Positions 1,910-57,947 of a stretch of 64,000 bases of DNA are shown here, piece by piece (positions within the stretch are counted from its first letter, which is position 1; every line of letters begins with the position of its first letter). The translations under genes were made by a program, and so were the position numbers. The DNA is from a virus, in IMG/VR virus record IMGVR_UViG_3300029911_000010, positions 1-64,000 of that record; one strand, given 5' to 3'. The notes beneath the pieces are model-generated. The model was not told the DNA's origin and did no database searches. It worked only from the letters and a program-made list of their open reading frames with translations.

Positions 1910-1927
1910 CGAAGCCTCCTTGCTTCG
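1910..1927 (-). promoter_or_regulatory. CsrA/RsmA-type hairpin over RBS
   Basis: CGAAGC-AAGGAG-GCTTCG directly before ATG 1909. Confidence 0.7.
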
Positions 1928-1932
1928 TCGGT

Positions 1933-2985
1933 TCAACTCAAGATCTCAGACACTTCGCTGAACGGATGGTCGCTGTAACAAACAGTCAACCGGGTCATGT
2001 TCACGTCGATGATGACGGTGTGCATGGACGGTTCGATGCTGATGTTGACGCCCAGGCCGTTCAACAGCGACGCGAACTTGCCGCCGACGCCGTTGATTGA
2101 CCGGATGACTTCATTGCACCGTGGCCCGCCTTCCAACAGCCCATCCGACTCGTCTGAGTCACCCAGGGGCGGCGTCTCTCCGGGAAACAGCTTGGGCTCG
2201 TTGTTGCATACAGGTCCAGCGCCAGCGCCAACGTCGGCTCCGATCACCACGGCATTGTTGAAGTCTTCCTGCCGTAAAGCTGCATTGTACCCGGCGACGA
2301 ACCGAACGTCTCCTCGCAGGCATCGGGCTGTCACGTAGATCGTATCCTGGGCATTGGGAAAGTCCCAGACAACATCAGAGCAGCCGACCGGTGCCGTCAC
2401 GCGGACACGATTAAGGTTGGCAATGTTGATCGACGAGACATAACCGCCGGATACGTTCTGGACCAGCGCGGGTTCAACTACGCCAAAGCTGATGCTGCCA
2501 GTCAGATGCTCGCCATCGGTTAGCGTAGCGGCCAGATTCATCATGTCGCCGGTCACCAGATAGCCCGACCACAAAGGTTCAGGCGGGCATTCTGAAAGCA
2601 GATCGTTGGATACTTCAAATATCGGCGAGTCGCTGGATTCGCTGTAGCCGTAAGCCTGCTCGACGTCGTCGACGTGCTCGACGGCGTATTGCCCGTCCGT
2701 GACCAAATCGCGGGTAAACGTCAAAGGGCGCTGATATAGCCCCGGAGCGTCGCAGGCAAACGCGAAGGTGACGATGTTGCCGCTTCGAACCACCGAGTCA
2801 AGCCATACAGTATGCTGTCCGGCGATGTAGCCACTGTACAGCCCCATGACAAAGCCAGCGTCGACAACCGTGTTGTTATCCAGCACCTGTATCGTGCCGG
2901 CGCTGCCGATGGGGTTGGCTACCGTGTCGGTTATGAACGGGTAAGCTCTGAATCGGTTGGTGTTATAGAAGCCTGGCTGTGCCAT
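1933..2985 (-). CDS. Cys-rich tail/baseplate-associated protein, paralogue 1 of the N-x-x-R-x-YPF family
   Basis: N-terminal FYNTNRFRAYPF, C-terminal RSINGVGG; located in tail module. Confidence 0.7.
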   Translation of the reverse strand: MAQPGFYNTNRFRAYPFITDTVANPIGSAGTIQVLDNNTVVDAGFVMGLYSGYIAGQHTVWLDSVVRSGNIVTFAFACDAPGLYQRPLTFTRDLVTDGQYAVEHVDDVEQAYGYSESSDSPIFEVSNDLLSECPPEPLWSGYLVTGDMMNLAATLTDGEHLTGSISFGVVEPALVQNVSGGYVSSINIANLNRVRVTAPVGCSDVVWDFPNAQDTIYVTARCLRGDVRFVAGYNAALRQEDFNNAVVIGADVGAGAGPVCNNEPKLFPGETPPLGDSDESDGLLEGGPRCNEVIRSINGVGGKFASLLNGLGVNISIEPSMHTVIIDVNMTRLTVCYSDHPFSEVSEILS

Positions 2986-3005
2986 TTTCTAAAGTTCCTT
3001 TGTAA

Positions 3006-6960: not shown

Positions 6961-7917
6961 CTACGAACAAACAACGCAACCAGTGTCATTAAGCTTGCTG
7001 CCCAGTACGACCTGATCCATGTTGATAACCTGTGACTGCAGGTTATTAACGAAGTTCGACAAAGTTGAATACTCGCTGCCGAACATCTCCAAATCCTTGG
7101 TGATCTGCTCCAATTCGGCGCACCCGCAGCACGGCTGACTGCAGCTGTCACCGATGGTTATGCCGTTTTGAATGCCGTCGATATTGACGCATTCATTACC
7201 GGAAATAACCGAAAAGTTCCCGCCCGGATCAGGTCCGATTCCGTTGATAGTCAGAATCGGATCGCCATTTTGGTTGCCCACGCAGACACAAGCCTCAACA
7301 AGACCTTCGCCCTGAATTGCCGATATCAGAATCTGCGGGTCCTGGCCGACTTGAACCACCGTGGTCAGCTGAACGTTCTGATCAGCCACCAGCACAATAT
7401 CGCCGTACAAAGGCTGGCTGATTTGAGCGCCGGCGGAAACCCGAATAGAGCTGACGCCTCGGATGATTGGTCGAATGCAGTCGGGATCGATAAGCGTGTT
7501 GGCGTAGTCGAAGTTGAACGATCCAACCGGTTGCAGGTCGATGTCATCCAGCCGGCCGATAACGATCTTGCCCACCGTGTCGGAAAAATCACCAATTCCG
7601 CCGACCGCGTAGACATTGCCGGGGGCGTGGCTGCTGCGTGCAATCAATGCCGTGGCCACACTGATCGGCGATCCGATCGCCGGCTGATAGCCGATGATGA
7701 TAGAAAATCCGGTGGCGTAGGCTGTCAGTGTCAGGATGAAAAAATGGCCTGGGTCGATGTTCAAGCCGGCATGGACAGGCAAGTCCAGCTCCAACATGAA
7801 CTCATCAGGGATCGTAAACGTTCCCGTCTGGTCAACGCCATCGCCGTTCTCTGCCAGCGGATAGCTGCGCTGGCTGTTGCTGTTTTGCCATTCTAAGGCC
7901 CAAATCCCGGCTGGCAT
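6961..7917 (-). CDS. Cys-rich tail/baseplate-associated protein, paralogue 5
   Basis: EWQNSNSQRSYPL; TINGIGPDPGGNF; SCSQPCCGC followed by a coiled coil. Confidence 0.7.
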   Translation of the reverse strand: MPAGIWALEWQNSNSQRSYPLAENGDGVDQTGTFTIPDEFMLELDLPVHAGLNIDPGHFFILTLTAYATGFSIIIGYQPAIGSPISVATALIARSSHAPGNVYAVGGIGDFSDTVGKIVIGRLDDIDLQPVGSFNFDYANTLIDPDCIRPIIRGVSSIRVSAGAQISQPLYGDIVLVADQNVQLTTVVQVGQDPQILISAIQGEGLVEACVCVGNQNGDPILTINGIGPDPGGNFSVISGNECVNIDGIQNGITIGDSCSQPCCGCAELEQITKDLEMFGSEYSTLSNFVNNLQSQVINMDQVVLGSKLNDTGCVVCS

Positions 7918-7934
7918 CCGTGCCTCCAGTCAAA

Positions 7935-9748: not shown

Positions 9749-9764
9749 GACACCTCCGTGTGTC
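9749..9764 (-). promoter_or_regulatory. CsrA/RsmA-type hairpin over RBS
   Basis: GACAC-ACGGAG-GTGTC, 2 nt before GTG 9746. Confidence 0.7.
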
Positions 9765-12914: not shown

Positions 12915-12932
12915 ATTGGAATCCTTTCCGAA

Positions 12933-14570
12933 TTAGGCCGGCACAGGAATTTCACTGCTAACGTCGACGGCGACGTCTGAAACAGCAGTGAGAAACTGCA
13001 CCGTCCTCGGACTGATCATGGTTCCGTTCAATGACGGAACGATTAAGACTTCATCTGATCTCAGATAAACCATCTGACCGCTGGGCGCACGAATGCGACC
13101 AAAGATGTCGATGCTGCCGACACTCATGCCCTCGGGCAGCAAACTGCTGACTGCATCCTGTAGCGTTGAAGCGTAGAGCCGGCCGATAAAGCCCGTGCTA
13201 TTGACCGCCGCCGCCAACGTAGCCTGAATGGCGCTGACATCGGGGTCGGCCTGGTTGTAACGCTTGGCGATTCGCAGCGAGACTTGAGTGAAGCAGGGTA
13301 TCGCTGCCTTAACCAGCAGATCGCTTCCTACGCCACGATTGTCGTAACCTCCGGCAAAGCCCTGAATACAGTCTACTTGAGGCAGATAGCTGACGGTTAC
13401 CTGGTAGTTGGCCGTGGCCCCGACTGTCAAGTTTGTAGCCAGATCAGCGAAAGTGACGATCGAAGTTTGGTATCGGCTGTATACCCCTTCGCTGACAGTG
13501 ACGATGTCAGGTACAAAATCAGGTCCGCTCAGATCCAAACTTCGCACTTCCTGCAAGATCGACAGCGTACCGAAGTTAGCTGACGTTGGCTGGCGAATCG
13601 CGACGATCTCGTAAAACCCCGGCGCAGCGTCCCGCGTCAATGACGCCGACCATTGCCCGTTGCCGTTCTCGTCGACGGCGATCAACGTGCAAGGCATATT
13701 CAAAGTCAACGTGGCCAGCTGCGGAGTGGTTCGCACGTACCAGTCGATTCGGCCGCCGCCGACGCTGCCCGGAAAGATCGTGTGCTGATCCCGCAACATT
13801 TCTTCGTCACCACAGCCGATCACCGAGCCCACGACTCCAGCGAACGCCGCGTTGGCTCGCAACATGGCGGCCATGTTTACGCGGTTGCTGCTGGCTTTGG
13901 CGGCAATGCCCTGCTGGAATCGCGTCAGCAACTGATCGTTGGTTTCAGCGTTGACTCCGCCGATGAAGTCGTCCGTGGCATAGCTGGTCAGGTAGCCGGT
14001 AGGCAAAGCCGCCGGCACGACCAATGTATCCTTGGTCAGAATGTAGCTGTTGCCGACGTTAGTTGCCGTGACGCTGATGTTGAAAGCGTAGTTGCCGTCA
14101 TCAAGTTCTATCAGCAACACGTCTGACTGCCCGGTGACCTGAACTGCTTCCGGTTTGGCGGTGTACACCTGGTTGACGGCGAACTGCAGCCCGTTGGCCG
14201 TAAAGATGGCACCGCTGGCGATGGTGACGCTGGTAGATTGGGTTAGAACAATGGTGATCTGCCCGGTTGCAGTTGCTCCGGCTTGTCGTGTGACGTTCCA
14301 ATTCGACAGAATATCGTCGACTACTCCCGGATCGGCCAATGACGGGTTGGCTTCGACAGCCAGCAACGAACGAGCGTTGAGATAGTTATTGATCATCTCC
14401 TGCGTCATGGCCTGCAAGAGAGAGCCGTAGTAAACGATCGTATCGTGAATGACGCCGCGCTTGAGATCCAACGACGTGTTGGCCTCGGCTGCCAGTTGTG
14501 TGACTGTAGCCAAAGCCGCTGTAACGACAGTGGGGTCAAGCGAATCCAGAGTTGCGGGAACGATCGGCAT
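12933..14570 (-). CDS. Baseplate J-like (gp6) protein
   Basis: LSNWNVTRQAGATATGQI..., GGVNAETNDQLLTR signature. Confidence 0.85.
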   Translation of the reverse strand: MPIVPATLDSLDPTVVTAALATVTQLAAEANTSLDLKRGVIHDTIVYYGSLLQAMTQEMINNYLNARSLLAVEANPSLADPGVVDDILSNWNVTRQAGATATGQITIVLTQSTSVTIASGAIFTANGLQFAVNQVYTAKPEAVQVTGQSDVLLIELDDGNYAFNISVTATNVGNSYILTKDTLVVPAALPTGYLTSYATDDFIGGVNAETNDQLLTRFQQGIAAKASSNRVNMAAMLRANAAFAGVVGSVIGCGDEEMLRDQHTIFPGSVGGGRIDWYVRTTPQLATLTLNMPCTLIAVDENGNGQWSASLTRDAAPGFYEIVAIRQPTSANFGTLSILQEVRSLDLSGPDFVPDIVTVSEGVYSRYQTSIVTFADLATNLTVGATANYQVTVSYLPQVDCIQGFAGGYDNRGVGSDLLVKAAIPCFTQVSLRIAKRYNQADPDVSAIQATLAAAVNSTGFIGRLYASTLQDAVSSLLPEGMSVGSIDIFGRIRAPSGQMVYLRSDEVLIVPSLNGTMISPRTVQFLTAVSDVAVDVSSEIPVPA

Positions 14571-14578
14571 CCTTGCCT

Positions 14579-16270: not shown

Positions 16271-18085
16271 TTACTTCATCTCATAAGCCGGCAGCAACGG
16301 GGCTCCGGTCATCACGTTATTTCCGTAAAACGGATGGTGATCAATACTGGTCCGCTCTGCACCGTTTTCCGCTTCTGTCCTGACATGCGACAGTACGAAG
16401 CTGGTCGATGCTCTGCGTCCCTCGGCGTCAATCTCACAGGTGACACGCGTCACCTGTCCGTAAATATTCGAACCTAATTCGTCCTCGGCTCCGATGAACT
16501 TTTCCGGACTTCCGAGAATCTTCAAGTGTGAACCAGGTCCGATATCGAACCTCAGTTTACCCGAAATCGTTCCAACACGTCCACGAAGCGAGTTTTGAAT
16601 GAAAACACAGCGGGCATATTGCTGCAGCAACGTGGCAGCTTGAGGGATGAGATTGGCCGGCGTTGGTGGCTTGCCGTTGGACATGGCCGGCGGGACTGGC
16701 GGCGTTACGGTTGGCGTAGTCGCGGTCTGCGTAGCCGCATTGTTCAAAACTCCAGTGGTGTAGCCCAGGTTAGACGGTGAAGCACAGATCTCGCCGATCC
16801 AGGTCGGCACTCGCACATACAGGATCGCTCCGTCGCTGTCCCCCACGGCGTCAGAGGCGTAAGCGCCGGCGATACTGGACGGATCGCCTGTAGCCTTGTC
16901 GGTCACCGAAATGCCTGTCTCGGATTGAACTGCACCGTGTGCCACAACTGCCCGCAACGGCTTGGGCAAAGTCCCGGTCTGATCCAGATAATCGTACTCG
17001 TCGGGCGTTATCGTCCTCCAGATGCCGCCGCTGTAGCCGGGGCAGCTGGCGACGGCCACGGCCCGGTCGATCATCGGGCAAATGTCGATGCCGAATTCCG
17101 GACAGAACTTGCCGATCATGGCATCCCACAGTGTCAGATGCACTACTTCGCCGGCCAACAGATAAGACGTGGCTTTGGCTATGCCGTATTTGGCCTCGTC
17201 GACGTTCAACCCTATCATAGTTAAATTCAAGCTGTACTTATAAGGCAGACTTTGCAGCGGGCCAGCCCAAACTGGACTTTCGAATCTCGCTAATGCCTTG
17301 GCGGCTCGATCGTTTTTCTTGAGCAAATCAACACATTGCGCATTATTATCTGCGGCAGAAATGGCGTTTTCTGTTTCACCTAACGGCTGGAACCCTTCAA
17401 TCTGTGTCATGCCCCACATGAAATCTTTGAGTGTACCCCAGATATCGCCGCCTTTGTTCAAATCGTCAACAACGCTTGGTCCTCCTATCAGACTGCCTAG
17501 AAACGTGCCTTGATCTCCGATGCCGCTTTGGCCGGTGGGCAATGGAGCAATGATAGAAGGGAAGGTAAGGCTTTCGTGATTCTCCGGGTGACTGATCGAC
17601 GACAGAGAGCTGGTAAAGTTCATGTCCGTCAGCCAATGCAGCAAATGAACGACGAAGGTGATCTTGCCGCGAATTTTTGGCAGGGAAAACCCGACGTAGT
17701 AACCGTCGAAAATCACATTCTCACTGGTCGGCCACAATCGATCACCGGCTTCGGTTCTGTCGTTAGGCGAGAACTCTGACTGCGGGCCGAAAGTCAGCAT
17801 TACCTTAGCCGGCAGCATCGACGACATACTGCTCAGCGCCGAGTGAATGGCCGCATTCTGGTCGACGTGATTGGCATCTCGTCCTATCGCCAGCATGCAC
17901 ATGGATTCAGGAATCTCGTTGATGGCCCAACTGCCAGTCCACTGGACAACCTCAAAATTGATAACGATGGGAGTTACACCACTCGCATCAGCGGCGGATG
18001 CGGCGCTGTTGTCCAGTTGCAACGTTAGCGACTGGTTGTTGCCCAGTGTCGTGTAGGCCCAATTTTTAGCTGGCGCTTTGGCCAT
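16271..18085 (-). CDS. Baseplate hub protein (gp27/gpD-like, putative)
   Basis: VIFDGYYVG N-terminal barrel; C-terminal GKLRFDIGPGS...GQVTRVTCEID. Confidence 0.65.
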   Translation of the reverse strand: MAKAPAKNWAYTTLGNNQSLTLQLDNSAASAADASGVTPIVINFEVVQWTGSWAINEIPESMCMLAIGRDANHVDQNAAIHSALSSMSSMLPAKVMLTFGPQSEFSPNDRTEAGDRLWPTSENVIFDGYYVGFSLPKIRGKITFVVHLLHWLTDMNFTSSLSSISHPENHESLTFPSIIAPLPTGQSGIGDQGTFLGSLIGGPSVVDDLNKGGDIWGTLKDFMWGMTQIEGFQPLGETENAISAADNNAQCVDLLKKNDRAAKALARFESPVWAGPLQSLPYKYSLNLTMIGLNVDEAKYGIAKATSYLLAGEVVHLTLWDAMIGKFCPEFGIDICPMIDRAVAVASCPGYSGGIWRTITPDEYDYLDQTGTLPKPLRAVVAHGAVQSETGISVTDKATGDPSSIAGAYASDAVGDSDGAILYVRVPTWIGEICASPSNLGYTTGVLNNAATQTATTPTVTPPVPPAMSNGKPPTPANLIPQAATLLQQYARCVFIQNSLRGRVGTISGKLRFDIGPGSHLKILGSPEKFIGAEDELGSNIYGQVTRVTCEIDAEGRRASTSFVLSHVRTEAENGAERTSIDHHPFYGNNVMTGAPLLPAYEMK

Positions 18086-18848
18086 TGCGGATTTCCTCTT
18101 CGCGGTAAATCATCGCCAGCACCAGGCCGCCCAGCTTATAGGGGATCAACGGATGACTGGTCCACAACGACTGGAACAGGGCATAGTCGCCGGACGGCTG
18201 AACGCCAAATAGCTGCAAGCCGGTCGGCTCGCCGACAACTTTCAAGGCTTCGACAAGTTGACCCATGTCCCACTGCGGACGGTTGTAGCACCAGACTTTC
18301 CATTGCAGCGTGCCGCTTGTCGCGTTGGGTACCATGATCGAATAGCCGCTGCCAATTAGCGGAATGAAATCCAGCACCGTGGTGTAAAAGTTGTTTTGAA
18401 ATCCGGGAGAATGTTGCAGCACTTGAAATTGGTTGCCTCCCAGAGCAGTGACTGTGTAGTCGAAATAGGTCTGACCGGCTAGATCAGGTGCAGCCGGGGT
18501 GCCGTTCCATGACAGACCGCCCTGGGTATTACCCAGCGGCGTCGACCACAACTGCCAGGCGTTGCCGGTGACCAGATCGCTGGACGGGTAAGTGATGCGA
18601 GGGTCCAGCGCCGTGATGTAGTCAACCAGCTCGGTGGCTCCGATAAGCCCCAGCAGCTGAGCCGCACGATAGTTGAGCATGGCGCGGTCCGGGCTAGAGC
18701 CAAACAGAATCGAGCGGATCTGCTGAATGTAGGTTGGCAGCGTCAGCGCCCGGTATGAAGGATCAATTAGTTCCTCGCCGGGGCAGTCGTCCAGCGGCTG
18801 TTGGGAAGAGTCGATGTTGACCAGAAGATTTCTAGCGTGGTTAATCAT
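18066..18848 (-). CDS. Baseplate/tail-associated protein
   Basis: True start MINHARN at 18848 (ATGA overlap). The ORF-track extension to 19367 overlaps a real gene. Confidence 0.65.
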   Translation of the reverse strand: MINHARNLLVNIDSSQQPLDDCPGEELIDPSYRALTLPTYIQQIRSILFGSSPDRAMLNYRAAQLLGLIGATELVDYITALDPRITYPSSDLVTGNAWQLWSTPLGNTQGGLSWNGTPAAPDLAGQTYFDYTVTALGGNQFQVLQHSPGFQNNFYTTVLDFIPLIGSGYSIMVPNATSGTLQWKVWCYNRPQWDMGQLVEALKVVGEPTGLQLFGVQPSGDYALFQSLWTSHPLIPYKLGGLVLAMIYREEEIRNGQSAS

Positions 18849-19318
18849 TTGTCGGGTATCACCATGAGATTCATCGTCCACTGCACCAGAAACAAACTCG
18901 GGTCCACGACGTCGCCGGTGATGTCGGACACGAACGCCTGTAACGTCGTACTGCTGCCGATCAGGATATTGACCGGCGTCGGGCGAGCCGACAAGCGATA
19001 CTGCTTGTACCACTTGAGCATTTTTTCCAACCCGTGCTGGCCGTCGTCGCCAGGAGCGCAGCTTTTGGCAAACGACAAACCCGAGATGGACATGGTGCCG
19101 ATCCGTTCGCCGAACACGTAAATATAGATGTCTCCGCCCAGCGTGTGCAGAAACTGATAGCTGGAAGACTGAGCAACGGTCATCCGCGTGATGATCGATT
19201 TCTGCTGAGCAAAAAGAATGGACGGGTTGGGGCTGACCAGAGGTTTGGGCAACACGGCTGCCACGCCAGGATCGTTCATGGCAACCACTCGCCCAGGCAC
19301 TCCGGAAAACAGAATCAT
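18845..19318 (-). CDS. Tail-tube-like baseplate/tube initiator protein
   Basis: YQFLHTLGGDIYIYVFGERIGTMSISG; directly after the tape measure gene. Confidence 0.65.
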   Translation of the reverse strand: MILFSGVPGRVVAMNDPGVAAVLPKPLVSPNPSILFAQQKSIITRMTVAQSSSYQFLHTLGGDIYIYVFGERIGTMSISGLSFAKSCAPGDDGQHGLEKMLKWYKQYRLSARPTPVNILIGSSTTLQAFVSDITGDVVDPSLFLVQWTMNLMVIPDK

Positions 19319-19326
19319 GTCCTCTC

Positions 19327-34177: not shown

Positions 34178-35101
34178 TCATACCGAACCGTAGTCCGAGC
34201 CGTAACTGCCGGCACACTCGTGCATGGAAATTTGCAATTTCTTAAGCTGCCTGAACTCATCCCATTGCTGCTTGTGCATCTGGTAGGCCGCCAGGTACTC
34301 ACGCTCCTTGTCCTTGTCGCCGACCAGCTGGCCGCCGCCCTGCAGGTTGGCTTTGTTGCGGCGGTAGTGTGCGGCGGCCATTTGATACAAATATCCAGAC
34401 GCGGCGCTGAGCCATTCCTGTTTCCACGGAAAGTTTCGGCTGTCAAATCGTAGTCTGATTCGCGGCGGCATGTCGTTGAAGTCAGCCAGGGGCTTGGTCA
34501 GGGCGATCGTCAGCTGCTCGTCGGAAAATTCCAGATCGTCCAGCAGATACTGATTCTCAACCGGCGAGGAATCGACGATGCTCATCCGCAACTCGTTGAT
34601 CGTCGGCGGCCCGTCCGTGTGCGTATACCCAGGCGTGTTGAAGCCGAACAAGCTGCGCTCGACGCTTAGCAGCCCGTCGTTGATCAGGACGATGTCGCCC
34701 TCACGCACCAGCGCCCATGACAACCGATAGATGCCACTCTGGCCGTAGATGCTGCTAGGGATTGGCGCTCGAACGACGCCGTTGGTCGCATCGATCACGC
34801 TGCCCTCGGATACCTTGATGTTTTGCGGGCCTTGATTGAAGCCGCTGAACTCAGCAATTCGCAGGATAACTTGAGTGTTCAGGCTGTCGTCGTTGTCGCT
34901 GTCGCTGAAATCGATCGAACCTGATTCGCTGACTTCGGCCGGGGTGAACAGATCCACAGGATTGCCGGTGCGGTCGCGGAAAGTCTGCTCCAGCGTTACG
35001 TTCACGCCTTCCTGGCAGATGAACGCTTTGATGCGAGTGAGAACCGGGCAGCCGTCCATGGCGGGGATGCCCGGCGTGATCACATTCAGATCTGCCGTCA
35101 A
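34178..35101 (-). CDS. Neck/head-tail adaptor protein (putative)
   Basis: Start re-called to TTG 35101 after AAGGAGG; LLDDLEFSDEQL..FNDMPP..YRRN. Confidence 0.6.
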   Translation of the reverse strand: MTADLNVITPGIPAMDGCPVLTRIKAFICQEGVNVTLEQTFRDRTGNPVDLFTPAEVSESGSIDFSDSDNDDSLNTQVILRIAEFSGFNQGPQNIKVSEGSVIDATNGVVRAPIPSSIYGQSGIYRLSWALVREGDIVLINDGLLSVERSLFGFNTPGYTHTDGPPTINELRMSIVDSSPVENQYLLDDLEFSDEQLTIALTKPLADFNDMPPRIRLRFDSRNFPWKQEWLSAASGYLYQMAAAHYRRNKANLQGGGQLVGDKDKEREYLAAYQMHKQQWDEFRQLKKLQISMHECAGSYGSDYGSV

Positions 35102-35143
35102 AGTAAGCCTCCTTGCTTGACTGAAATTCATTGTAACCGGGAC

Positions 35144-41769: not shown

Positions 41770-41890
41770 GATAGTCCTCCGTGACAAGTTACAGGCCCGA
41801 TCCTTTCAGGCCACTGCATGAATATTAACCGGCAGGGGGCAGGGGATGCAAGCGCCGATGGTTTACAAAGGTTGTTTTGCGATAGCTAAA

Positions 41891-45040: not shown

Positions 45041-45979
45041 TCAGACAAAGTCCGCACGGGCCAGCCCTGACGTGAAGCCAATCGTGCCGCCCATGGTCTC
45101 ATAGGCGAAAAATTCCAACATAAAGGCTTCGCGCCTAATGTACATAGTCGTGTCTTCAAGCACATAGGACTTGCCGATGAACTTGGGATCACTGAACATG
45201 TACATCGTGTTGGTCGGGACCAGACCCTTCTTGATCGTGATCACCCAGGTCTTGCCCATGAACTCCTGGAGCGTCCAGCCGTTCTTCATGATGTCCTGAG
45301 ACAGGTCGCCACCCATCTCGTTGCGGCCGAACTTGCACACATCCTTGATCGTGATGTGGTTGATGAGGATCGTGTGGACCTCCAGCGAGCTGGGGGTGTT
45401 GGGCATGATCTTCATCGCATCTTCCAGCGTATCGCGGGTGATGCCACCGGCAATCACTTCGTACTGGACGACGCCGCTGGTCGGGACAACCAGGCCGGGG
45501 CCGACGATCGCGGTGTTGATGGCGCGGATGAATTTAGAATCTTCCTCTGCCAACATGTCCTTGATCGCGTTATCACTGAGCACCTGGCGGATGTCCATGA
45601 TCCAGGTCCGCAGCTCGTCCACGTCTTTGGTGAAACGGGGCGTGACGATACGGTCGAACATGACGCGGTAGCGGGGACCGCGAATGTACAGGTTCTGCGG
45701 CAAGGTCGCGAACGCGATGCTGATGGCAGCAGGCGAATTCGGTTCCTTGTCGACCACCTTGACCGGCTTGTCGGTGTCGACCTGGCGGTCCAGCTCATCG
45801 TTGCCGATGGGCGTGGCCGGCAGGATGCGGCGGTAAAAGCCGTCTTCACGCATCTTCGTACGCGTGAAGTCGTTGATGGAATCTTCGGCCTGTTTGATCA
45901 GGCCGTTATCACGAGAGCCAAGCTGCTGAAAAAGCGTTTGATTCAGCAGCTTAGTTTCTTCGGGGGAGAGCTGAACCAT
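45041..45979 (-). CDS. Major capsid protein (HK97 fold)
   Basis: 312 aa; REDGFYRRIL, FDRIVTPRFTKDVDEL, AEEDSKFI, FFAYETMGGTIG; follows protease, scaffold and decoration genes. Confidence 0.85.
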   Translation of the reverse strand: MVQLSPEETKLLNQTLFQQLGSRDNGLIKQAEDSINDFTRTKMREDGFYRRILPATPIGNDELDRQVDTDKPVKVVDKEPNSPAAISIAFATLPQNLYIRGPRYRVMFDRIVTPRFTKDVDELRTWIMDIRQVLSDNAIKDMLAEEDSKFIRAINTAIVGPGLVVPTSGVVQYEVIAGGITRDTLEDAMKIMPNTPSSLEVHTILINHITIKDVCKFGRNEMGGDLSQDIMKNGWTLQEFMGKTWVITIKKGLVPTNTMYMFSDPKFIGKSYVLEDTTMYIRREAFMLEFFAYETMGGTIGFTSGLARADFV

Positions 45980-45984
45980 TTTTA

Positions 45985-46026
45985 GATCCTCCGTGATCAG
46001 TTAAAAGTCACCGCCATCCTTGGCGG
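45985..46026 (-). promoter_or_regulatory. Two CsrA/RsmA-type hairpins in the MCP leader
   Basis: GATC-ACGGAG-GATC (45985-45998) and CCGCC-AAGGAT-GGCGG (46011-46026). Confidence 0.75.
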
Positions 46027-46048
46027 CATGAAACACTCTGCCATCAGC

Positions 46049-46591
46049 TTAGGCGCTGGGGGGCAGATACACAGGCCAGAAGGCAACCGCCTCATAGCCA
46101 TAACCGTTGTCGACCAATCCACGCGACACAACGCCGCAGATCGTGTTCGTGCCGAGCGTGCCCGGCGTGAGCATACCTGCCAGCACCGCACCGCTGTTGA
46201 CCAGGGGGCTGGTCAGGTGGGTGTTGGGCGGGTAGGTCTGGGTGTCGTCGTAGTTGGTCGAAACCAACTCGTAGGCACCGACCGCGACCAGGAACATCAG
46301 CACGCCGGTCGGATTGATGGCAATGAAGACGTCCTTGGTGGTCGCAGCATCACCGCCGTCATTCTGCACGTCGGGGTCATCCGACGCCTGGAAATTGAAC
46401 AGCGGCATGACCGGACTGTTACCCACGCCCAAGACCGCGTAGCCATTGGCATTCAGGGAGCAGCAAGCCCCCGGCGGCACACGAGTCTGGACGGACGGAT
46501 CGAACTTGCCCTCGAAATCGAGAGCATTGGGACGCGGCCAGCCCTTGAGGGGGTTGAGCGTCTGGGAAGTCATTTGACGAGGAGCAGCCAT
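46049..46591 (-). CDS. Capsid decoration/cement protein (putative)
   Basis: Start MAAPRQ; beta-rich, immediately upstream of MCP; leader nearly identical to the MCP leader. Confidence 0.7.
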   Translation of the reverse strand: MAAPRQMTSQTLNPLKGWPRPNALDFEGKFDPSVQTRVPPGACCSLNANGYAVLGVGNSPVMPLFNFQASDDPDVQNDGGDAATTKDVFIAINPTGVLMFLVAVGAYELVSTNYDDTQTYPPNTHLTSPLVNSGAVLAGMLTPGTLGTNTICGVVSRGLVDNGYGYEAVAFWPVYLPPSA

Positions 46592-46661
46592 TTTAAGATC
46601 CTCCGTGATCAGTTGGAAACGAGCCATCCATCCTTGGAGGCCCTAATTCGTTGGTGAAAAC

Positions 46662-47126: not shown

Positions 47127-47162
47127 TGTGACAGCCTCCATGCTGCTTGTTGGGTTGATTTC

Positions 47163-48491
47163 TTACCGGACAGCCGCTGCAGCGGCTTGCTTTTGACGGC
47201 TGCGGCCGATCACCTCAACGAGATAAGCTCGGGCCGCCTGCTTAACTTGTTCGCTGACACCGGCGTCAGCGGCTGCCACCTGCATGCCTGGAGGCGGGCC
47301 ACCGGCTCCCGGAGGAGGGCCACCCATGCCTGGAGGCGGGCCACCGGCTCCCGGAGGAGGGCCACCCATGCCCGGAGGGCCGCCAGCGCCTGGAGGCGGG
47401 CCACCGGCCCCCGGAGGGCCACCGGCACCACCGCCGCCGGCCTGTTCTTCCTGGTAGGCCTGCATGAACTGCTCGGGCGTGATGCCCATCTGTTGCAGCA
47501 TGGCCATGATTTGTTGAATATCGCCGCCACCGCCGCCAGAAGGGTCATCGCCGCCGGAGGGATCGCCGCCCGGAGGCGGGCCACCAGCGCCAGGGGGAGG
47601 GCCGCCCATGCCGGGAGGGGGAGCGCCGCCGCCTGCGGGATCTTCGTCACCGCCGGGAGGAGGAGCGCCGCCGCCGTCTTCGCCCTTGCCGTCGCCGCCG
47701 GCCTTCACCCGCTGCTGCACACGCTGCTGGCAGTAGTTAATGACGCGATCGGCATCGGATTCGGCTTCCTTGATGATTTCCACCAGGGTGTCCTGCACCA
47801 TGCGGTCGGCGGCAGCCTTGTCCATCGTGCCGTCGATCAAGCCGGCCAGTTCCCAGCCTGCCTGGCGGCTGAGTTGAGGATTGACCGGTTGAGCCACCTG
47901 CTGGGCAGTCTGCTGGGGCTGGGCAGCTGCGCCTTCCTTGGTGACGTTGGTCTGCACTTCATTGGCGATCTGGGCACAGAGAAGCTCACCCAACGAAGAG
48001 ATCTCGCCGGCCAGCTTCTGCAGCGGGTCATTGGCCAGATCGGTGGCGTACTTGCCGCCATTGAGTTCGCTGTTGTCGGTGCGGGCCGGATGGGTGGTGG
48101 GCTTCTTGTAGCCCTTGTCTTCCTTGGTGGTCTTGGTCTTGGGCACGTCCTCCCCGGTCGGCGTGGCTCGAAGCCCAATGTTGTACTGGTCGGCCTCGGC
48201 AGTCCCCGGCTCACCTACGCCACCGGACTTGGCAGTGCCGGCTTCGGGTGTGGAGTCGACCGAGGGCTTGCCCTGGTCGGCCTTGACGTCCTTGGTGTTC
48301 TCGGCCGAGCGGAAGCCTTCTTTGGCTTTCTCGGTCCGGTCGTCGACCTTTTTCACGGGGTGAGTGGTTTCGCCGCCGATGCTTCCGGGTTCAGTGTGAG
48401 CCTCGGCAGTCTTGGCAATCGTTGAAGCGGCGCTGGATTCCACGCGAGCAAGATACGCTTCGATCGTGGAAAGCTGGTGTTGAGCAGACAT
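47163..48491 (-). CDS. Scaffold-like protein with Gly/Pro low-complexity tail
   Basis: Between protease and MCP; repeated GGPPPG(A/M); K-x-A motifs. Confidence 0.65.
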   Translation of the reverse strand: MSAQHQLSTIEAYLARVESSAASTIAKTAEAHTEPGSIGGETTHPVKKVDDRTEKAKEGFRSAENTKDVKADQGKPSVDSTPEAGTAKSGGVGEPGTAEADQYNIGLRATPTGEDVPKTKTTKEDKGYKKPTTHPARTDNSELNGGKYATDLANDPLQKLAGEISSLGELLCAQIANEVQTNVTKEGAAAQPQQTAQQVAQPVNPQLSRQAGWELAGLIDGTMDKAAADRMVQDTLVEIIKEAESDADRVINYCQQRVQQRVKAGGDGKGEDGGGAPPPGGDEDPAGGGAPPPGMGGPPPGAGGPPPGGDPSGGDDPSGGGGGDIQQIMAMLQQMGITPEQFMQAYQEEQAGGGGAGGPPGAGGPPPGAGGPPGMGGPPPGAGGPPPGMGGPPPGAGGPPPGMQVAAADAGVSEQVKQAARAYLVEVIGRSRQKQAAAAAVR

Positions 48492-48537
48492 CCTTGTCTC
48501 CTAAAATTGCATCCTGCTGATCGGCCGAGGCTCGGCC

Positions 48538-51447: not shown

Positions 51448-52854
51448 CTACTTTTTGACGTTGCCCGGCTGCGGAGCTGCCGGCTTAGGCATCGGGTCAA
51501 CAGGAGCCGGCTGGGTATCCTTGAGACCTTTTTCAAGATCCAGCATCTGCCCGTGCTCGAACGGTTGGACGTTGCCCTGGAGATATCGCTGCAGATGCGA
51601 ACGCATGAGCGCCGGCTGAGAAGCGGCACGGGGCGTAAGCCGCGAGATCTCGTTATAGGCGTGCAGCACTTCGTCGGGTTCATGACCACCGATCACGGGA
51701 TCATTCATCATGTCAGACAGCATCGACTGTGTCTGAATCTGCTGCAGCTTGGCGGCATGCCTGGGATCTTCCAGTTCTTCATAGGGTCCGGCTACTGGAT
51801 CACCGGACTCCTGCTTAAAAGGGTTGAGAACTTCTCCAAACAGATTCTTGGCGTCGCTGACCATGTCCATCAGCTTGATCGGCGTGGCTGCCGACTTAGT
51901 CAATAGATTGAACGACGCGTCCTTGACTGGTCCGTGAATCAGCGGACCCAGGATATCCTGCTTGTGGATTTCGGCCGCCGTCTTGGCGGCGGCTTCCGCA
52001 TTGCGAAACTGGATGACGTCCTTGGCCAGCTTGACGCAGCGGGTCAGCGCCGACCAGGGCATCTGTTGCGGCTCGACGGCGACGACCTGCTTGCCCCAGT
52101 TGACGCTGTCGCCTCGAAGCGAGTTCTCGGCCATCTTGTTACGAGTGAATACCCAGTCCATCACCGCCTGGCCGTTGGCACCGTGATAAACTTCGGCGGT
52201 TTTTTCCACCAGGGCGAAAGGCAAATGCCGCTCCGGCGACTGACGGAAGTAGTCACCTAGTTCGCCCATGGCTCCGATCAGCTTCTGGTAAGCGTCGCTG
52301 GCGTTGACGCGGGCGTCAGCCGCCTGCTTGGTCAACTTCTCGTCCAGACCCATCGCCAGCGACAATGCCGACTTCTTGGGACACGTGCAATGCTCCATCG
52401 GACGATGGCATTCTTTGCAGTGGTCAGCCGTCTTGAGCAGGCCGGCCACCTGGATTGAAGCCGCCTTGATCATCGACACGTTCGGCTGGCGGAGATTGTG
52501 ATCAAGGAAGAACGCCGGGCCACTGCCATACTCGTTTGACACGGTGGCGTAAGCCTCGTCGGCTGCCGTCTTGACCTGCTTGGGCCAGATGCGATCGATT
52601 ACCTGGTCGGGATCTGCCAGGGGAAAGTCGGCGAACTTTTCCAGGGCATTGTCGTTCTCCTGCCGCTGGTAAGTCTGCCGCCCGGTGTTGTAGGCGTACG
52701 ATGCAAAGCGAACCATGTCCGGACCCCAGCTGGAGTCGCGGGCGATCTTCTCGATCGCATCGACAGGAGACATCTCGTCTTCATCGACCAAGGTCACTGC
52801 TTGCTTGACGGCAAGAATGACTTTGTTTTCAGCTTCCTTGCTGAGCGTCTGCAT
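51448..52854 (-). CDS. K-x-A-rich head protein
   Basis: 468 aa with many KxA motifs; hairpin RBS. Confidence 0.7.
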   Translation of the reverse strand: MQTLSKEAENKVILAVKQAVTLVDEDEMSPVDAIEKIARDSSWGPDMVRFASYAYNTGRQTYQRQENDNALEKFADFPLADPDQVIDRIWPKQVKTAADEAYATVSNEYGSGPAFFLDHNLRQPNVSMIKAASIQVAGLLKTADHCKECHRPMEHCTCPKKSALSLAMGLDEKLTKQAADARVNASDAYQKLIGAMGELGDYFRQSPERHLPFALVEKTAEVYHGANGQAVMDWVFTRNKMAENSLRGDSVNWGKQVVAVEPQQMPWSALTRCVKLAKDVIQFRNAEAAAKTAAEIHKQDILGPLIHGPVKDASFNLLTKSAATPIKLMDMVSDAKNLFGEVLNPFKQESGDPVAGPYEELEDPRHAAKLQQIQTQSMLSDMMNDPVIGGHEPDEVLHAYNEISRLTPRAASQPALMRSHLQRYLQGNVQPFEHGQMLDLEKGLKDTQPAPVDPMPKPAAPQPGNVKK

Positions 52855-53908
52855 GTTGGTCCTCCTGACCAGTCGGCTTTCTCGGCGCTGGCAATGCCAG
52901 TTTCTCGATGCCGTCCATTGTACGCGGTTTTCGCCCAGACGAAAGTTCGAGCATTTCGTGGGTACGCAGCTCTGCGGCCGCGTCGTCGTAACGTTCCACC
53001 GGTTTGCCAGTAATCAGCTTCCTGCCCTTTTCACCGACCGCCCAGTTCAATCCTTTGAGCGTGGCGGCGATGTTGCTGAGCAGCTGGCTTTGCGGCACAC
53101 CGTCGCCAGCCGCCGCTTGTTCCATGGTCTTGATTTGTATATGCACCTGAAACAGATCCATGACATTGAAGCGATTGACTTCGAAATTCTGCGCAGCCAT
53201 CGCTGAGCGGTGCTTCAAACGAGTAAACGTATGATTGTCCAACCACGGAGCAACGTCGTCCTTGCCCTGGGCGATTACGCCTTTGTGGAATCCGCACTGC
53301 AGGATGTAGTCCAACACCGCAGGCCCGCCGAAGTAGGCGAACATTTTGGTCGTCGGGTCGAAAAACGGTTCACTCAGCGGCGAGCGGCTGAACGTCATCA
53401 TCTGCGGATTGTCGGGGTCATTATTGTTGTTGCGCTGCGGCTGATTCATCGTTTGATCCAGCCCGGCGTTGATGGCGGCTTCGTACGCCGGCATCAGCAC
53501 GCGGTCGACAATCCAGCCGGTGTTTTTCAACCGCCCACGCACGTCGAAGAACATGGCGGAATACCACCGAATCATCTCCGGTCGTGTACCCAGCTCGTCG
53601 GCGATGACCTGGTCGGTACAGCCGTTGAGAATGCGGGACTCGATGATAGTGATCATCCGGTTGTTGACCTGCTGCTCGGAGTACAGCTGGTAAGCCAGGA
53701 AGACCCCCAAGTCGCGCCAAGCCAGCTGCTCCCGCGTAGCCTGATCAGCCGAGCGGTATCGCAGCACGAATTCCCTGAACCGTCGGACGTACTCGTCGTC
53801 GCTCTTGACGCATCGCTTGACCGGCGTGTTGTCGATCATCTGCAACACACGATCAAACCGCCACCCTGGCGGTCGGAACGGACTGAATCTGTGAAACCTG
53901 ACTTGCAC
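52829..53908 (-). CDS. Hypothetical protein, possible HTH
   Basis: TDQVIADELGTRPEMIRWY. Confidence 0.65.
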   Translation of the reverse strand: MQVRFHRFSPFRPPGWRFDRVLQMIDNTPVKRCVKSDDEYVRRFREFVLRYRSADQATREQLAWRDLGVFLAYQLYSEQQVNNRMITIIESRILNGCTDQVIADELGTRPEMIRWYSAMFFDVRGRLKNTGWIVDRVLMPAYEAAINAGLDQTMNQPQRNNNNDPDNPQMMTFSRSPLSEPFFDPTTKMFAYFGGPAVLDYILQCGFHKGVIAQGKDDVAPWLDNHTFTRLKHRSAMAAQNFEVNRFNVMDLFQVHIQIKTMEQAAAGDGVPQSQLLSNIAATLKGLNWAVGEKGRKLITGKPVERYDDAAAELRTHEMLELSSGRKPRTMDGIEKLALPAPRKPTGQEDQHADAQQGS

Positions 53909-54891: not shown

Positions 54892-55149
54892 TTGTGCTGG
54901 CCTCCGTGCCAGTGAAAGTAAAATGCGTCGGCAGCTTCGATAAGCGGGCCGCGAATTTCAGGGTGCAAATCCTTGAGTCGTTTAGACGACTTCTGACAGT
55001 TACAGGCTCGACACAACCGGACAGCGTTACCGGGTTTCAAGCCGTTTCCTCGCGATAACGGTCGAACGTGATCGGTACAGGTCGCGGTTGCTTTGACGTA
55101 TGACGGTCAAACGGCTGTACCTATCGTTGAGCAGGTCTAGTGCTTGCAT
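54888..55149 (-). pseudogene. Degenerate HNH homing endonuclease remnant
   Basis: MQALDLLNDRYSRLTVIRQS in one frame; TDHVRPLSRG..NAVRLCRACNCQK in the +1 frame with no start. Confidence 0.7.
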
Positions 55150-55151
55150 GA

Positions 55152-57878
55152 TCAGTCTCCAGATTCTTCCATATCTGGGTCTTGTATTTCGTCGAGTCGT
55201 GGCTCGATTGTCTTCTCCTTTAGGAATAACACTATATCTGCGAGGCTTTCAAAGGCATTTCGCAGCGAATCTTCCATCTCCGGCAAAGAATTTTTGCCAT
55301 ACCGCTCCTTGAAATCATCTTGATGCCAGTAAAAAAGGAAGAGCAACCGGCCCAGCTTGTCGACGGCTTTCATCAGGTCAGGCAAGTGGCGGTCCACCAG
55401 CGAGTCCTGCCGCACCGACTTGAGCATGCCGGAGATCATCGAAGTGTCGAACACCTCTTTCTGCCCTTCCTGGCCGGCTTGCTGGGCAGTCTGCACCGCC
55501 TTCTGGTCGGGCATCAGGAATGGATCATAGATCCGAGGATCAGTCTGCGAGCTGTCCAACCCCGACACCGGCACATGCTCGCTCTGGGGATAGATGGCGT
55601 TGACTGAATTGTAGCCGACCTGTTCACTACCGTACTCGGGAGCCGGCATGACTGGGGCGTAGGGGCCACCGGACTGCAGATCGCCGCTGGGATAGTAGCC
55701 TGCGGTCTTTTCTCGCGGATAGCTCTTGGCGTATACGACGCGGTACTGCACCGGCGATCCGCTCATGCCGTTGCTGTGAACCTGGGCTTGCTTGAGCATC
55801 GCGGCTGCTTCGCTTTCGCCGAGCCCGTGATCGCGAATCAGACAGAACAGACCATGCCGCCACGGCATGCGCTCGCAGCCTCGCTTGATGGTCTGAATGG
55901 ACACTTCGCTGTGATCGCCCCACATCTTCATGGACGCGGTCTTGGTGGTGAACAGCAGTTGAATGTCACCGATGTCGCCGGGGACGATCGGCTTGGGGTC
56001 TGAGCCGTCTGAGTCCCAACCAACCGGGCCGCCGATACTGCTCTTGCTGGGACCGTCGCCGTCGTCTTTCTTGGGCTTGGGCGGATCTTTGAGCTTCATG
56101 AACTTGAAAGTATCGGGCACGTGCAACGTGCCGGCAGCCGCCCGCAACTTGGTGCCGGGGCGGTCGTTGATCACTAGCAAAGCATCGTAGTTGCTGACAT
56201 AGCCGCCGTCGCCGGAATAGGACGAAGGCTCAGTCACCTTGGGCAAACCGCTGGCACGCCCGGCTTTCCAGTCCTCGTAGCCCTTGAAGTCGACCTTGTA
56301 ACGCTTGTCCTCGTAAACCTTGCTGACAACAAACGGGACAGTGCCCTCTCCGGCCTGGTTGATCGCCAGGTAGGTGCCGCCCTTGGACAACGTCTCGGAG
56401 TTGCCCAGACCTTTGAACCATTCGCGGAAATCGTTCTCCGACTCGATTGTTTTGGTCCACAACGACGTGCGGTGACCGTTAAGCCACGACTTCTCGCCGT
56501 CGCCCAATCGCACCACCGTACAAAAGTTCTTTTGCCCGTCGTTGGCACTGGGGGCCTGGACCACCAGCATGCGGCCGAATTCGCCGGGCTTCTCCAGCAC
56601 TTCGTAGATGCCGGTCTCGTGCGGATTTGTCAGTTCCGTTCGCACTTGAGTGTTGTACGCATGGCTGATTTCGTCGCCCTTGCGCTCGTCCTTGACCAGA
56701 TAGCCGTGGTGCAGGAGCTTTTCTTTATCCTTCTCGGGAAGTTCCTTGTTGACCGTGAGGCTGACATCCGGGTCAGTGAGAATCTTGACCTTGGGCTTCT
56801 TGTCATCTTCGGGCGGCTGGGCTTCCTTAAGCAGCGAAAAATCCAGTTCACTTCGCGGCTTGTTCGGCGCAATGCGGGTTTCCCACTCGGCTCCTTTGAT
56901 CAGGCAGTTGGCGGCTTCCTCGGCTGCCTGCTTGATTCGCAGGCCGACGCGATGGAAGAAATCGCTGCCATAGAACTTATCGAAGGCGACCTTGATGCCG
57001 GGGTAGCGCTGGGAGATGTTGTAGGCTCCTTCCAGCAGGCTGACATCGGTCGCCAGGAAGTCTTCCAGCGACAGTGGGACGTCGGCTAAGGCCGCCTTGA
57101 CGGGGCTGGCGGGCAGCTTGCTGACGTCAACTTTGCGATCGGCCGGGGCGTTGGGCCATAGGAAGTTGGCTTGCTTGGTGGCAATGGCCGCCAGCAACGG
57201 CAGCGCCGGCACCGCCCAACCGGCCACGTCGCGATTGCCGACGCGGATGTAATCCGGCAGCGGTGATTCCGCAGACCGACCTTCGCGGGCGGCAGCAGCT
57301 TTGGCCTGTAGTCGCTCCAGAGCACTGCCGTATTTGTTGTGCGGCGGCGGATAGCTGAGACGTTCGATGTTGGGGGCAATGCCGCCCAGCTGCCAGGTAT
57401 CCTTGGCCGAGCCTTCGCCCAGGACGTGCGGCTTGCGGCTGAGGATGTAGTTGACCCAGTTTTCCTTCATGGGCACGAAGGAGTCCTGATTCTTGATATA
57501 CAAAAGCTCGTGGCCCTTGAGATCACCGTTGAGGAAGAAGATCGGGGCGTACAGCCACTGCTTGCCGATCTTGAAGCCGAACACGCCGACAGCCTTGGTG
57601 TTGTCGTCGTTGCGGTCGACCAGCTGGAAGCCGACGATGTAGTCGATCAGGCGGGGAGCCTTATCCTTGAGATAGGCATACCCAAGTGAAGAGAAGGATT
57701 GCTCAAAGCCCTGCTCCTGCTCGCCGCCGATGCTCGCCCATTTGATGCCGGGACCCTTGGCCAGTCCGCGAATGTGCATGACCAGCTGCAGCGGTGTCGC
57801 GTCGCTGGTGTAAAATTGACCGGCATCCGTAGCGTGCTTGATGAACGTAATGTGCTTCCGTGCAGTTGTAATTGCCAT
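55152..57878 (-). CDS. Large K-x-A-containing head-associated protein
   Basis: 908 aa; hairpin RBS CTTTTC-ACGGAC-GGAAAG; KxA motifs in linkers. Confidence 0.7.
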   Translation of the reverse strand: MAITTARKHITFIKHATDAGQFYTSDATPLQLVMHIRGLAKGPGIKWASIGGEQEQGFEQSFSSLGYAYLKDKAPRLIDYIVGFQLVDRNDDNTKAVGVFGFKIGKQWLYAPIFFLNGDLKGHELLYIKNQDSFVPMKENWVNYILSRKPHVLGEGSAKDTWQLGGIAPNIERLSYPPPHNKYGSALERLQAKAAAAREGRSAESPLPDYIRVGNRDVAGWAVPALPLLAAIATKQANFLWPNAPADRKVDVSKLPASPVKAALADVPLSLEDFLATDVSLLEGAYNISQRYPGIKVAFDKFYGSDFFHRVGLRIKQAAEEAANCLIKGAEWETRIAPNKPRSELDFSLLKEAQPPEDDKKPKVKILTDPDVSLTVNKELPEKDKEKLLHHGYLVKDERKGDEISHAYNTQVRTELTNPHETGIYEVLEKPGEFGRMLVVQAPSANDGQKNFCTVVRLGDGEKSWLNGHRTSLWTKTIESENDFREWFKGLGNSETLSKGGTYLAINQAGEGTVPFVVSKVYEDKRYKVDFKGYEDWKAGRASGLPKVTEPSSYSGDGGYVSNYDALLVINDRPGTKLRAAAGTLHVPDTFKFMKLKDPPKPKKDDGDGPSKSSIGGPVGWDSDGSDPKPIVPGDIGDIQLLFTTKTASMKMWGDHSEVSIQTIKRGCERMPWRHGLFCLIRDHGLGESEAAAMLKQAQVHSNGMSGSPVQYRVVYAKSYPREKTAGYYPSGDLQSGGPYAPVMPAPEYGSEQVGYNSVNAIYPQSEHVPVSGLDSSQTDPRIYDPFLMPDQKAVQTAQQAGQEGQKEVFDTSMISGMLKSVRQDSLVDRHLPDLMKAVDKLGRLLFLFYWHQDDFKERYGKNSLPEMEDSLRNAFESLADIVLFLKEKTIEPRLDEIQDPDMEESGD

Positions 57879-57947
57879 TGCTTTCCGTCCGTGAAAAGGG
57901 CATCAGTTTATTTCACTATAACAACCTACCGCCTAATGCTCCAAATA

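Follow-up and report, generated by a model that had tools for sequence, protein, structure and literature searches.

Putative CsrA-type operator hairpins at the gene starts of an uncultivated jumbo phage that encodes a tandem CsrA

The 64,000 nucleotides (nt) analysed here (the window) are bases 1–64,000 of a 104,427-bp IMG/VR record (IMGVR_UViG_3300029911_000010; CheckV completeness estimate of 47%) from an uncultivated phage with a size of around 220 kb, the minus strand of which carries nearly all of the genes of the record. Across the window, small hairpins that present an A(N)GGA(N) loop recur where ribosomes would load, and an original prediction, made from the sequence of the window, had proposed that 22 of them at 16 gene starts form a translational regulon of the virion genes under a protein of the CsrA/RsmA family. 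Here we show that such hairpins greatly exceed expectation on the coding strand of the record, that the phage carries a tandem csrA gene of its own and that the capsid-gene hairpin is retained in relatives through compensatory stem changes. We suggest that the hairpins are operators of a CsrA-family protein, and weigh this reading against the alternatives.

All 22 of the minus-strand stem–loop–stem strings listed in the original prediction are present where it placed them, at genes starting at 1909, 7917, 9746, 12914, 14570, 29004, 32231, 35101, 41769, 45979, 46591, 47126, 48491, 52854, 54891 and 57878; five of the 22 have stems of only 3 bp and are individually within chance. All window features described below lie on the minus strand. 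The major capsid protein gene (45041–45979; 312 amino acids (aa); phrog_2522 major head protein, E = 4e-9) has its Shine–Dalgarno (SD) sequence in GATC-ACGGAG-GATC (45985–45998), the stem of which covaries in around 60 relatives, and a second upstream hairpin of the same leader, CCGCC-AAGGAT-GGCGG (46009–46028), lies around 27 nt from the SD site with a predicted probability (P) of 1.0 for its closing pair in context; it also came up as a weak terminator-like site. Upstream of the capsid gene, a 180-aa gene has GATC-ACGGAG-GATC at its own SD (46597–46610) and TCC-AAGGAT-GGA as the second hairpin of its leader (46627–46638; P = 0.97 in context). The ribosome-binding regions of these two genes are nearly identical over around 25 nt (45979–46005 and 46591–46617; AACTGATCACGGAGGATCT..AAAATGG).

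The candidate tail sheath gene (29391–32231; 946 aa) matches PF04984 (Phage_sheath_1) weakly, at 21.8 bits under a 31.4-bit cut-off; its SD lies in GAGC-ACGGAG-GCTC (32235–32248), with AAGACGGTT-ACGGAT-AATCGTCTT (32273–32296) as the upstream hairpin of the leader. The 156-aa gene that follows has TCAGAT-ACGGAG-ATCTGA at its SD (29007–29024; P = 0.81) and, upstream in its leader, ACTCGTC-ACGGAT-GACGAGT (29062–29081; ΔG of −9.8 kcal/mol, P = 1.0). The start codon of the baseplate wedge gene (12933–14570; phrog_6 baseplate wedge, E = 6e-16) is covered by GGC-AAGGAT-GCC (14566–14577), the 3-bp stem of which is weak alone. Most hairpin-bearing genes had no family match in PHROGs or Pfam, and the label 'virion gene' therefore rests on the capsid gene, the baseplate wedge gene and the weak sheath match.

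Elsewhere in the window, the SD lies within CGAAGC-AAGGAG-GCTTCG (1910–1927; 636-aa gene; ΔG of −7.2 kcal/mol, P = 1.0), GACAC-ACGGAG-GTGTC (9749–9764; 603-aa gene), GGA-AAGGAT-TCC (12918–12929; 275-aa gene; a 3-bp stem, weak alone), AAGC-AAGGAG-GCTT (35105–35118; 307-aa gene), CAGC-ATGGAG-GCTG (47132–47145; 154-aa gene) and CTGGC-ACGGAG-GCCAG (54897–54912; 202-aa gene), and the start codon is overlaid by GGC-ACGGAT-GCC (7913–7924; 318-aa gene; 3-bp stem) or AGAC-AAGGAT-GTCT (48486–48499; 442-aa gene; P = 0.98). Three further genes carry more than one site. The 148-aa gene has GTC-ACGGAG-GAC at its SD (41774–41785; 3-bp stem) and the pentaloop hairpin GGCCTGA-AAGGA-TCGGGCC in its leader (41794–41812; ΔG of −10.5 kcal/mol, P = 0.9). 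At the 908-aa gene, the SD is held by CTTTTC-ACGGAC-GGAAAG (57881–57898), which includes G–U pairs in its stem, and the first codons by TGC-ACGGAA-GCA (57853–57864; 3-bp stem). The 468-aa gene has the pentaloop hairpin TGGTC-AGGAG-GACCA at its SD (52857–52871; P = 0.95) and TCAGC-AAGGAA-GCTGA over codons 4–9 (52829–52844; P = 1.0). The latter is one of at least two hairpins absent from the first list, the other being GCC-ATGGAC-GGC (35051–35062), 54 nt downstream of the 35105–35118 hairpin. Two-hairpin leaders occur at the capsid gene, the preceding 180-aa gene, the sheath candidate, the following 156-aa gene and the 148-, 468- and 908-aa genes; in all, six to eight leaders of the window have two hairpins, spaced by 20–56 nt. 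The genes starting at 43037, 44960 and 37328 have plain, unstructured SDs, as previously described. Beyond the window, two minus-strand hexaloops begin with the gene's own start codon: CGAC-ATGGAG-GTCG at a 389-aa gene (record 75317–75330) and AGTC-ATGGAA-GATT at an 876-aa polyprotein gene (record 81950–81963).

The excess of these hairpins was assessed over the whole 104,427-bp record against a null in which 3′ flanks were permuted among the copies of a loop motif. The coding strand has 24 A.GGA. hexaloops with a Watson–Crick stem of at least 4 bp, compared with around 2.2 expected (maximum of 7 in 100 permutations), and 10 with a stem of at least 5 bp, compared with 0.5 expected. This enrichment over background is both strong and specific: the antisense strand has no excess (1 versus 0.9 expected), and across the record there is none for loops with a first base other than A, for penta- and heptaloops or for the control loops A.CCA., A.GAG. 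and A.AGG. In the SD zone, 17 of the 43 A.GGA. motifs are part of a hairpin with at least 3 bp compared with 1.5 expected (p ≤ 0.0005, with the null drawn within positional class); the excess extends to upstream leaders (4 versus 0.8 expected) and to the first 40 nt of coding sequence (3 versus 0.55 expected). In the 17 SD-zone hairpins, the first G of the GGA is at −9 to −14, or at −2, relative to the start.

The details of the motif go beyond what an SD requires. Among the 24 hairpins, the closing pair is C–G in 21; the loop starts with A and continues with C in 11, A in 10 and U in 3, and its sixth base is G (13 hairpins), U (7), A (3) or C (1), such that the invariant core is GGA and not GGAG. 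CsrA selects RUACARGGAUGU in SELEX (the systematic evolution of ligands through exponential enrichment), with the GGA in the loop, as a rule of six bases, of a hairpin, the flanking AC and GU paired with each other and the stems mostly no longer than 4 bp (review PMC7652899). To judge from their letters, the phage hairpins match this SELEX and RsmE consensus base for base (AC-ARGGAU-GU; RUACARGGAUGU/CANGGANG), and, set against a CANGGANG-type hairpin, they have the A-first hexaloop, the C–G closure, the overlap with the SD or start codon and the paired sites. The pairing of sites is itself in excess. The present record (G000) has 4 strict neighbouring pairs of hairpins compared with 0.76 expected, and a complete relative (G001) has 15 pairs at 19–63 nt compared with 2.7 expected; this spacing is within the 10–63 nt over which one CsrA dimer bridges two sites (review PMC7652899).

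The original prediction had proposed a search for csrA (PF02599) and for a GGA-rich sponge RNA, and the first of these is found in the phage itself. At record positions 82054–82482 (locus L001, 1501–1929), 18 kb beyond the end of the window and on the plus strand, lies a tandem CsrA–CsrA gene of 142 aa, the open reading frame (ORF) of which scores 110.8 bits against PF02599 (cut-off of 27 bits); a search of the genome returns two stretches of 69.4 and 45.7 bits. It is one of just two candidate plus-strand genes in a crude gene call, and has a promoter-like site (σ70-like TTGACT-16-TATCAT with an upstream TG) and, downstream, a long GC-rich hairpin followed by Ts, as in a terminator. The SD of the tandem csrA is inside ATCGA-AAGGAG-TCGAT, the only plus-strand ANGGAN hairpin of the record with a stem of at least 4 bp. 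In G001, csrA is on the minus strand and carries one of the two minus-strand hairpins with stems of at least 4 bp, and G002 and G006 have a hairpin at the csrA SD as well. E. coli CsrA represses its own translation at the csrA SD (review PMC7652899). The csrA-SD hexaloop hairpin is limited to nearer relatives (4 of around 26 loci), and distant ones have two unstructured GGA motifs.

Metagenomes contain around 25 homologues of the tandem CsrA, including one on an 854-kb contig. Both halves of the protein retain L-V-L-S-R (the β1 motif L-x-L-S-R), and in an alignment of 27 tandem homologues M1, L2, S5, R6, R44 and E46 are invariant in the first half and R122 and E124 in the second; the RNA-binding residues of β1 (L2, L4 and R6) and β5 (R44 and E46) are present in both halves. 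An AlphaFold2 model is compact, with twice five strands and a helix in the order of CsrA (predicted local distance difference test (pLDDT) of 91.5; predicted template modelling score (pTM) of 0.82). Among solved structures, those of the CsrAs of Geobacillus and Bacillus (5dmb and 1t3o) are the protein's best relatives.

Conservation extends both to the gene and to the hairpins. The capsid protein has 108 relatives in IMG/VR, mostly on contigs of 155–235 kb, and these place the phage, on sequence grounds, in a large uncultivated jumbo-phage clade; a blastn search with 7.9 kb of the window gave 0 matches among the 50,697 phage records of INPHARED. Of 40 related jumbo-phage records, 31 have CsrA, as do 24 of the 27 that are at least 90% complete. 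Across 70 non-identical 7-kb capsid loci, hairpins with stems of at least 4 bp number 112 compared with 11.0 expected, around tenfold, on the sense strand only, and the capsid-leader consensus is GAAC-ANGGAG-GUUC. When the capsid SD region was aligned without gaps (69 sequences, 60 distinct rows; five pairs next to the loop), 74% of cells were paired compared with 54.5% after shuffling, and the covariation score of 0.44, compared with 0.15 for shuffled alignments, was reached by 0 of 500 shuffles, with slid registers scoring lower. The stems include GATC, GCAC, TTTC, AAAC, TAAC, GGAAC, AGAAC, AAGAC and GGAC; C–G closes 51 of the 60 distinct rows, and the next pair is A–U in 35. Stems that vary in sequence but stay complementary around a conserved loop, as first noted within the window, are thus seen in relatives as compensatory changes, and the covariation anticipated there is present. 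The sheath leader behaves similarly, with both hairpins retained in G001 on unrelated stems: the SD hairpin is ATTGGC-ACGGAG-GCCAGT in G001 and TTCTCGC-ATGGAG-GCGAGGA in others, and the upstream hairpin is, at the same place in G001, TGTTGAG-ACGGAT-CTCGACA.

Whole-genome counts of coding-strand hairpins with stems of at least 4 bp, observed and expected, are 24 and 2.1 in G000, 54 and 8.3 in G001, 16 and 2.7 in G022, 11 and 4.2 in G034 and 6 and 3.9 in G011, all of which carry csrA; they are 15 and 3.7 in G035, 3 and 4.5 in G037 and 5 and 3.8 in G012, three complete genomes in which a local profile search found no csrA. A strict link between the hairpins and a phage-borne csrA is rejected by G035, which has hairpins without the gene; in these genomes, the link is suggestive, not strict.

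The nearest named single-domain CsrAs are all from Planctomycetota (Tepidisphaeraceae and Phycisphaerae), which is probably the phylum of the host. In 80 loci around these bacterial csrA genes, the gene directly downstream encodes flagellin (Flagellin_N and Flagellin_C), and its SD is inside a conserved CAATC-A[U/C]GGAG-GAUUG hairpin (L187:10394–10411, with the equivalent place in around 40 loci, L186–L251); a flgA-like gene around 9 kb upstream has GCGAC-AUGGAG-GUCGC. Such an arrangement suggests a flagellar CsrA regulon in Planctomycetota, and the flagellin SD hairpin is, as far as its sequence indicates, of the same type as the GATC-ACGGAG-GATC of the phage capsid gene. Two Planctomycetota chromosomes, sampled at regular intervals for 400 kb in all, show no excess of hairpins (10 versus 12.4 expected), and only 2 of 227 bacterial SD-zone motifs lie in hairpins of at least 4 bp compared with 12 of 75 for G000 and 28 of 164 for G001; the hairpin is therefore not the general ribosome-binding style of that lineage. 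In the bacteria it marks csrA-adjacent flagellar genes, and in the phage it marks many genes.

Together with the enrichment and the conservation, the phage-encoded csrA supports the interpretation as CsrA-family translational control, and we assign a probability of roughly 0.7 to the reading that the hairpins are putative operators of a CsrA-family protein and form a phage-internal CsrA translational regulon. From the hairpins at SDs and the double CsrA of the phage we infer that it probably controls the translation of its own particle proteins through a borrowed bacterial regulator. The tandem CsrA is the most likely regulator, possibly sharing its sites with the host CsrA. In the mechanism that we propose, the two RNA-binding faces of a pre-formed pseudo-dimer would clamp, perhaps jointly with host CsrA, the ANGGAN hexaloop in which the SD or start codon lies, and in six to eight leaders also the second GGA hairpin 20–56 nt away; the 30S subunit would thereby be kept off the capsid, sheath, baseplate and other mRNAs, as well as the csrA mRNA itself, and the most abundant particle proteins would as a result have their timing or amounts set at translation. 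For such sites the default is repression through SD occlusion, and we infer it here, together with binding itself, repression over activation or stabilization, the identity of the acting CsrA and the relief of repression.

Several observations weigh against this reading. The complete genome of G035 is enriched in hairpins in spite of lacking a detectable csrA, so a phage copy of the gene is not strictly required, and the AT-rich csrA carriers G011 and G034 are weakly enriched. Hairpins occur at 16 of 46 called genes in the 1–58-kb part of the record and at 8 of 40 in the 58–104-kb part (Fisher p = 0.15), an excess in the structural half that is not significant; the proposed restriction to virion genes holds only in part. 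Around half of the hairpins, those with short 3–4-bp stems, lie outside the predicted minimum free energy fold of their 120-nt context. In context, formation is predicted for the long-stem hairpins (P of 0.8–1.0) and mostly not for the 3–4-bp ones, and the case accordingly rests on the statistics of complementarity and not on energy. Foldseek comparison of the tandem model with single PDB chains gave no significant match (best, RsmF/RsmN at E = 0.2), a null that is uninformative because an interleaved dimer was compared chain by chain. A search for the CsrA antagonist FliW (PF02623) that did match control genomes gave no match in G000 or any of five complete relatives, although FliW from the host might still play a part. 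The sponge half of the proposed search also came back empty: no Csr/Rsm family of Rfam matches in 104 kb of the record, no non-coding cluster of at least three hairpins was seen in it, and no GGA-rich sponge RNA was found. The adaptive value of a repressor operator on the most-needed late proteins is, moreover, not obvious, so that control could run in either direction.

The only RNA family match in the record is CyVA-1 (RF02965, 47 bits), which has one AAGGAG loop and lies on the minus strand at record positions 82558–82635 (L125:18558–18635), between the convergent csrA and 2H-phosphoesterase genes. CyVA-1 is an orphan motif, the second hairpin loop of which holds a conserved CGAAGGAGAA. It was considered as a csrA-linked sponge and rejected, as it occurs in 2 of 40 relatives and there lies away from csrA.

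The alternatives differ in who, if anyone, reads the hairpins. That they are read by host CsrA only, with the phage CsrA acting on host mRNAs (flagellin, defence or metabolism), seems to us unlikely, and this explanation overlaps with a phage-internal regulon in that both proteins may share one specificity. It would account for the retained hairpin excess of G035, a complete genome with no detectable csrA, and it agrees both with the operators' resemblance to the hairpin in the flagellin leader of the putative host lineage and with published proposals for phage csrA, which concern host manipulation; set against it are the location of csrA's own SD in the sole plus-strand hairpin of at least 4 bp, the near-core status of CsrA in the clade and the absence of an excess from two complete csrA-less relatives (G037 and G012). 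Hairpins that act without any protein, by holding the SD single-stranded in a loop and so boosting or tuning highly expressed genes, would suit likely high-copy products such as capsid and sheath, and a GGAG(G) loop is a good SD on a short stem that melts easily. We nevertheless regard this as improbable, because it does not explain the copies that lie elsewhere than at SDs (in upstream leaders and early coding sequence), the paired sites at 19–63 nt, the fixed A at the loop start and C–G closure, the GGAU, GGAA and GGAC loops, the restriction to hexaloops or the co-occurring csrA gene; the frequent C at the second loop base brings no gain in pairing with the anti-SD, and random genes of related bacteria are without such hairpins (2 of 227).

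Most phage genes are without an assigned function, and another RNA-binding protein or nuclease might therefore be sought among them, such as a RegB-like enzyme (which cuts GGAG in SDs) or a repressor like RegA or a coat protein; phages do use such factors, as in RegB and RegA of T4 and the coat protein of MS2. The core of the motif is GGA and not GGAG, with GGAU, GGAA and GGAC among the loops, and the motif appears to be the CsrA consensus base for base when CsrA is what the phage encodes; there was also no match to RegB (PF10715), although the control of that search was silent too. We consider a factor of this type very improbable. Least probable of all, and given almost no weight here, is that GC-rich leaders around SDs produced the hairpins by chance or through their composition. 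Stems of 3 bp, as in five of the 22 listed hairpins, and GGAGG with complementary bases can arise by chance, but the permutation of flanks within positional class, the flat strand, loop-size and motif controls, the stem covariation in relatives and the flat GC-matched bacterial background lead us to reject it.

The closest parallels to a phage CsrA regulon come from bacteria. The Csr/Rsm systems of Gammaproteobacteria (CsrA of E. coli, RsmE and RsmA of Pseudomonas) share with it the hexaloop GGA, the AC/GU closure, short stems, an overlap of site and SD, the bridging of two sites over 10–63 nt and a csrA autorepression site; the phage differs in having no detected sponge of the CsrB/RsmY/RsmZ type, a regulon inside a virus and a single-chain protein. 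In Bacillus subtilis, as in further flagellated bacteria, CsrA represses translation of flagellin (hag), with partner switching by FliW. The likeness to this CsrA–flagellin (hag)/FliW system lies in two sites at the SD of an abundant, self-assembling structural protein and in the Planctomycetota csrA–flagellin gene order with the same type of SD hairpin, and the differences are the many targets in the phage (capsid, tail and other), the fused double CsrA and the absence of a FliW match. A tentative extension, which we hold to be possible but doubtful, is that the jumbo-phage clade moved an ancestral flagellin-homeostasis circuit onto virion assembly, with an early, autoregulated phage CsrA silencing abundant capsid and tail mRNAs through flagellin-type operators until relieved. 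A single-chain pseudo-dimer may then neither mix with host CsrA nor answer to host FliW, and relief could come by titration as late mRNAs accumulate or from a phage antagonist tied to assembly. If so, a DNA phage would possess an autonomous late-gene switch that works post-transcriptionally.

Other mobile elements and phages offer partial likenesses. The coat proteins of MS2 and PP7 and RegA of T4 are phage proteins that act on a small hairpin or site containing the ribosome-binding site to time or dose translation; they belong to unrelated families, recognize other RNA motifs and repress replicase or early genes, not major virion genes. RsmQ of plasmid pQBR103 is a CsrA-family regulator on a mobile element, described on host mRNAs, and dense self-targets on pQBR103 have not been reported. 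Phage-borne csrA as such has precedents in PTXU04 gp28, the RsmM type of P. aeruginosa phages and IMG/VR surveys, from which the present case differs in its tandem fusion and in the dense, clade-conserved operator hairpins on the phage's own genes.

Phage csrA alleles have been catalogued since 2020 (Sobrero and Valverde 2020; Campa et al. 2021), phage and host CsrA co-occur (Campa et al. 2021), and knock-down of gp28, the CsrA homologue of E. coli phage PTXU04, results in smaller plaques. The standing idea in this published work is that phage csrA is a presumed manipulator of the host, with no phage targets named. Our full-text literature searches turned up neither a report of CsrA operators on genes of the phage itself nor a tandem CsrA, in keeping with the earlier statement that a phage-wide regulon of this kind was not known to have been described. 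This genome and more than 100 relatives offer a concrete set of putative targets within the phage genome, at the capsid, sheath, baseplate and csrA genes, and a natural single-chain CsrA with its leader RNAs makes the function of a viral CsrA directly testable. If the regulon reading is true, a bacterial global regulator would join the short list of phage devices for translational control, and the phage capsid gene and host flagellin would present a case of operator mimicry.

Further features of the record lie outside the hairpin set. Genes for the β and β′ subunits of a multisubunit RNA polymerase are split over window positions 57948–62915 and record positions 65106–68012 and 68163–71477 (all minus), two of them with LAGLIDADG homing-endonuclease-like insertions, and a ribonucleotide reductase gene with an ATP-cone and a LAGLIDADG insertion is at record 75479–78832 (minus). 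At 18066–19367 of the window (minus), a 433-aa ORF overlaps a 157-aa ORF (18845–19318) in another frame, and 18086–18844 was left unassigned in the crude gene call, such that a frameshift or a miscall is possible. The RNA polymerase and reductase genes are hairpin-free and have plain GGAGAC-type SDs. These exemplify a second, unstructured SD class, GGAGAC followed by 3–5 bases and ATG, which is common among hairpin-less genes and is seen at the gene starts at record 72532, 74147, 75326, 78832 and 79314 (minus) and at window positions 3833 and 48491.

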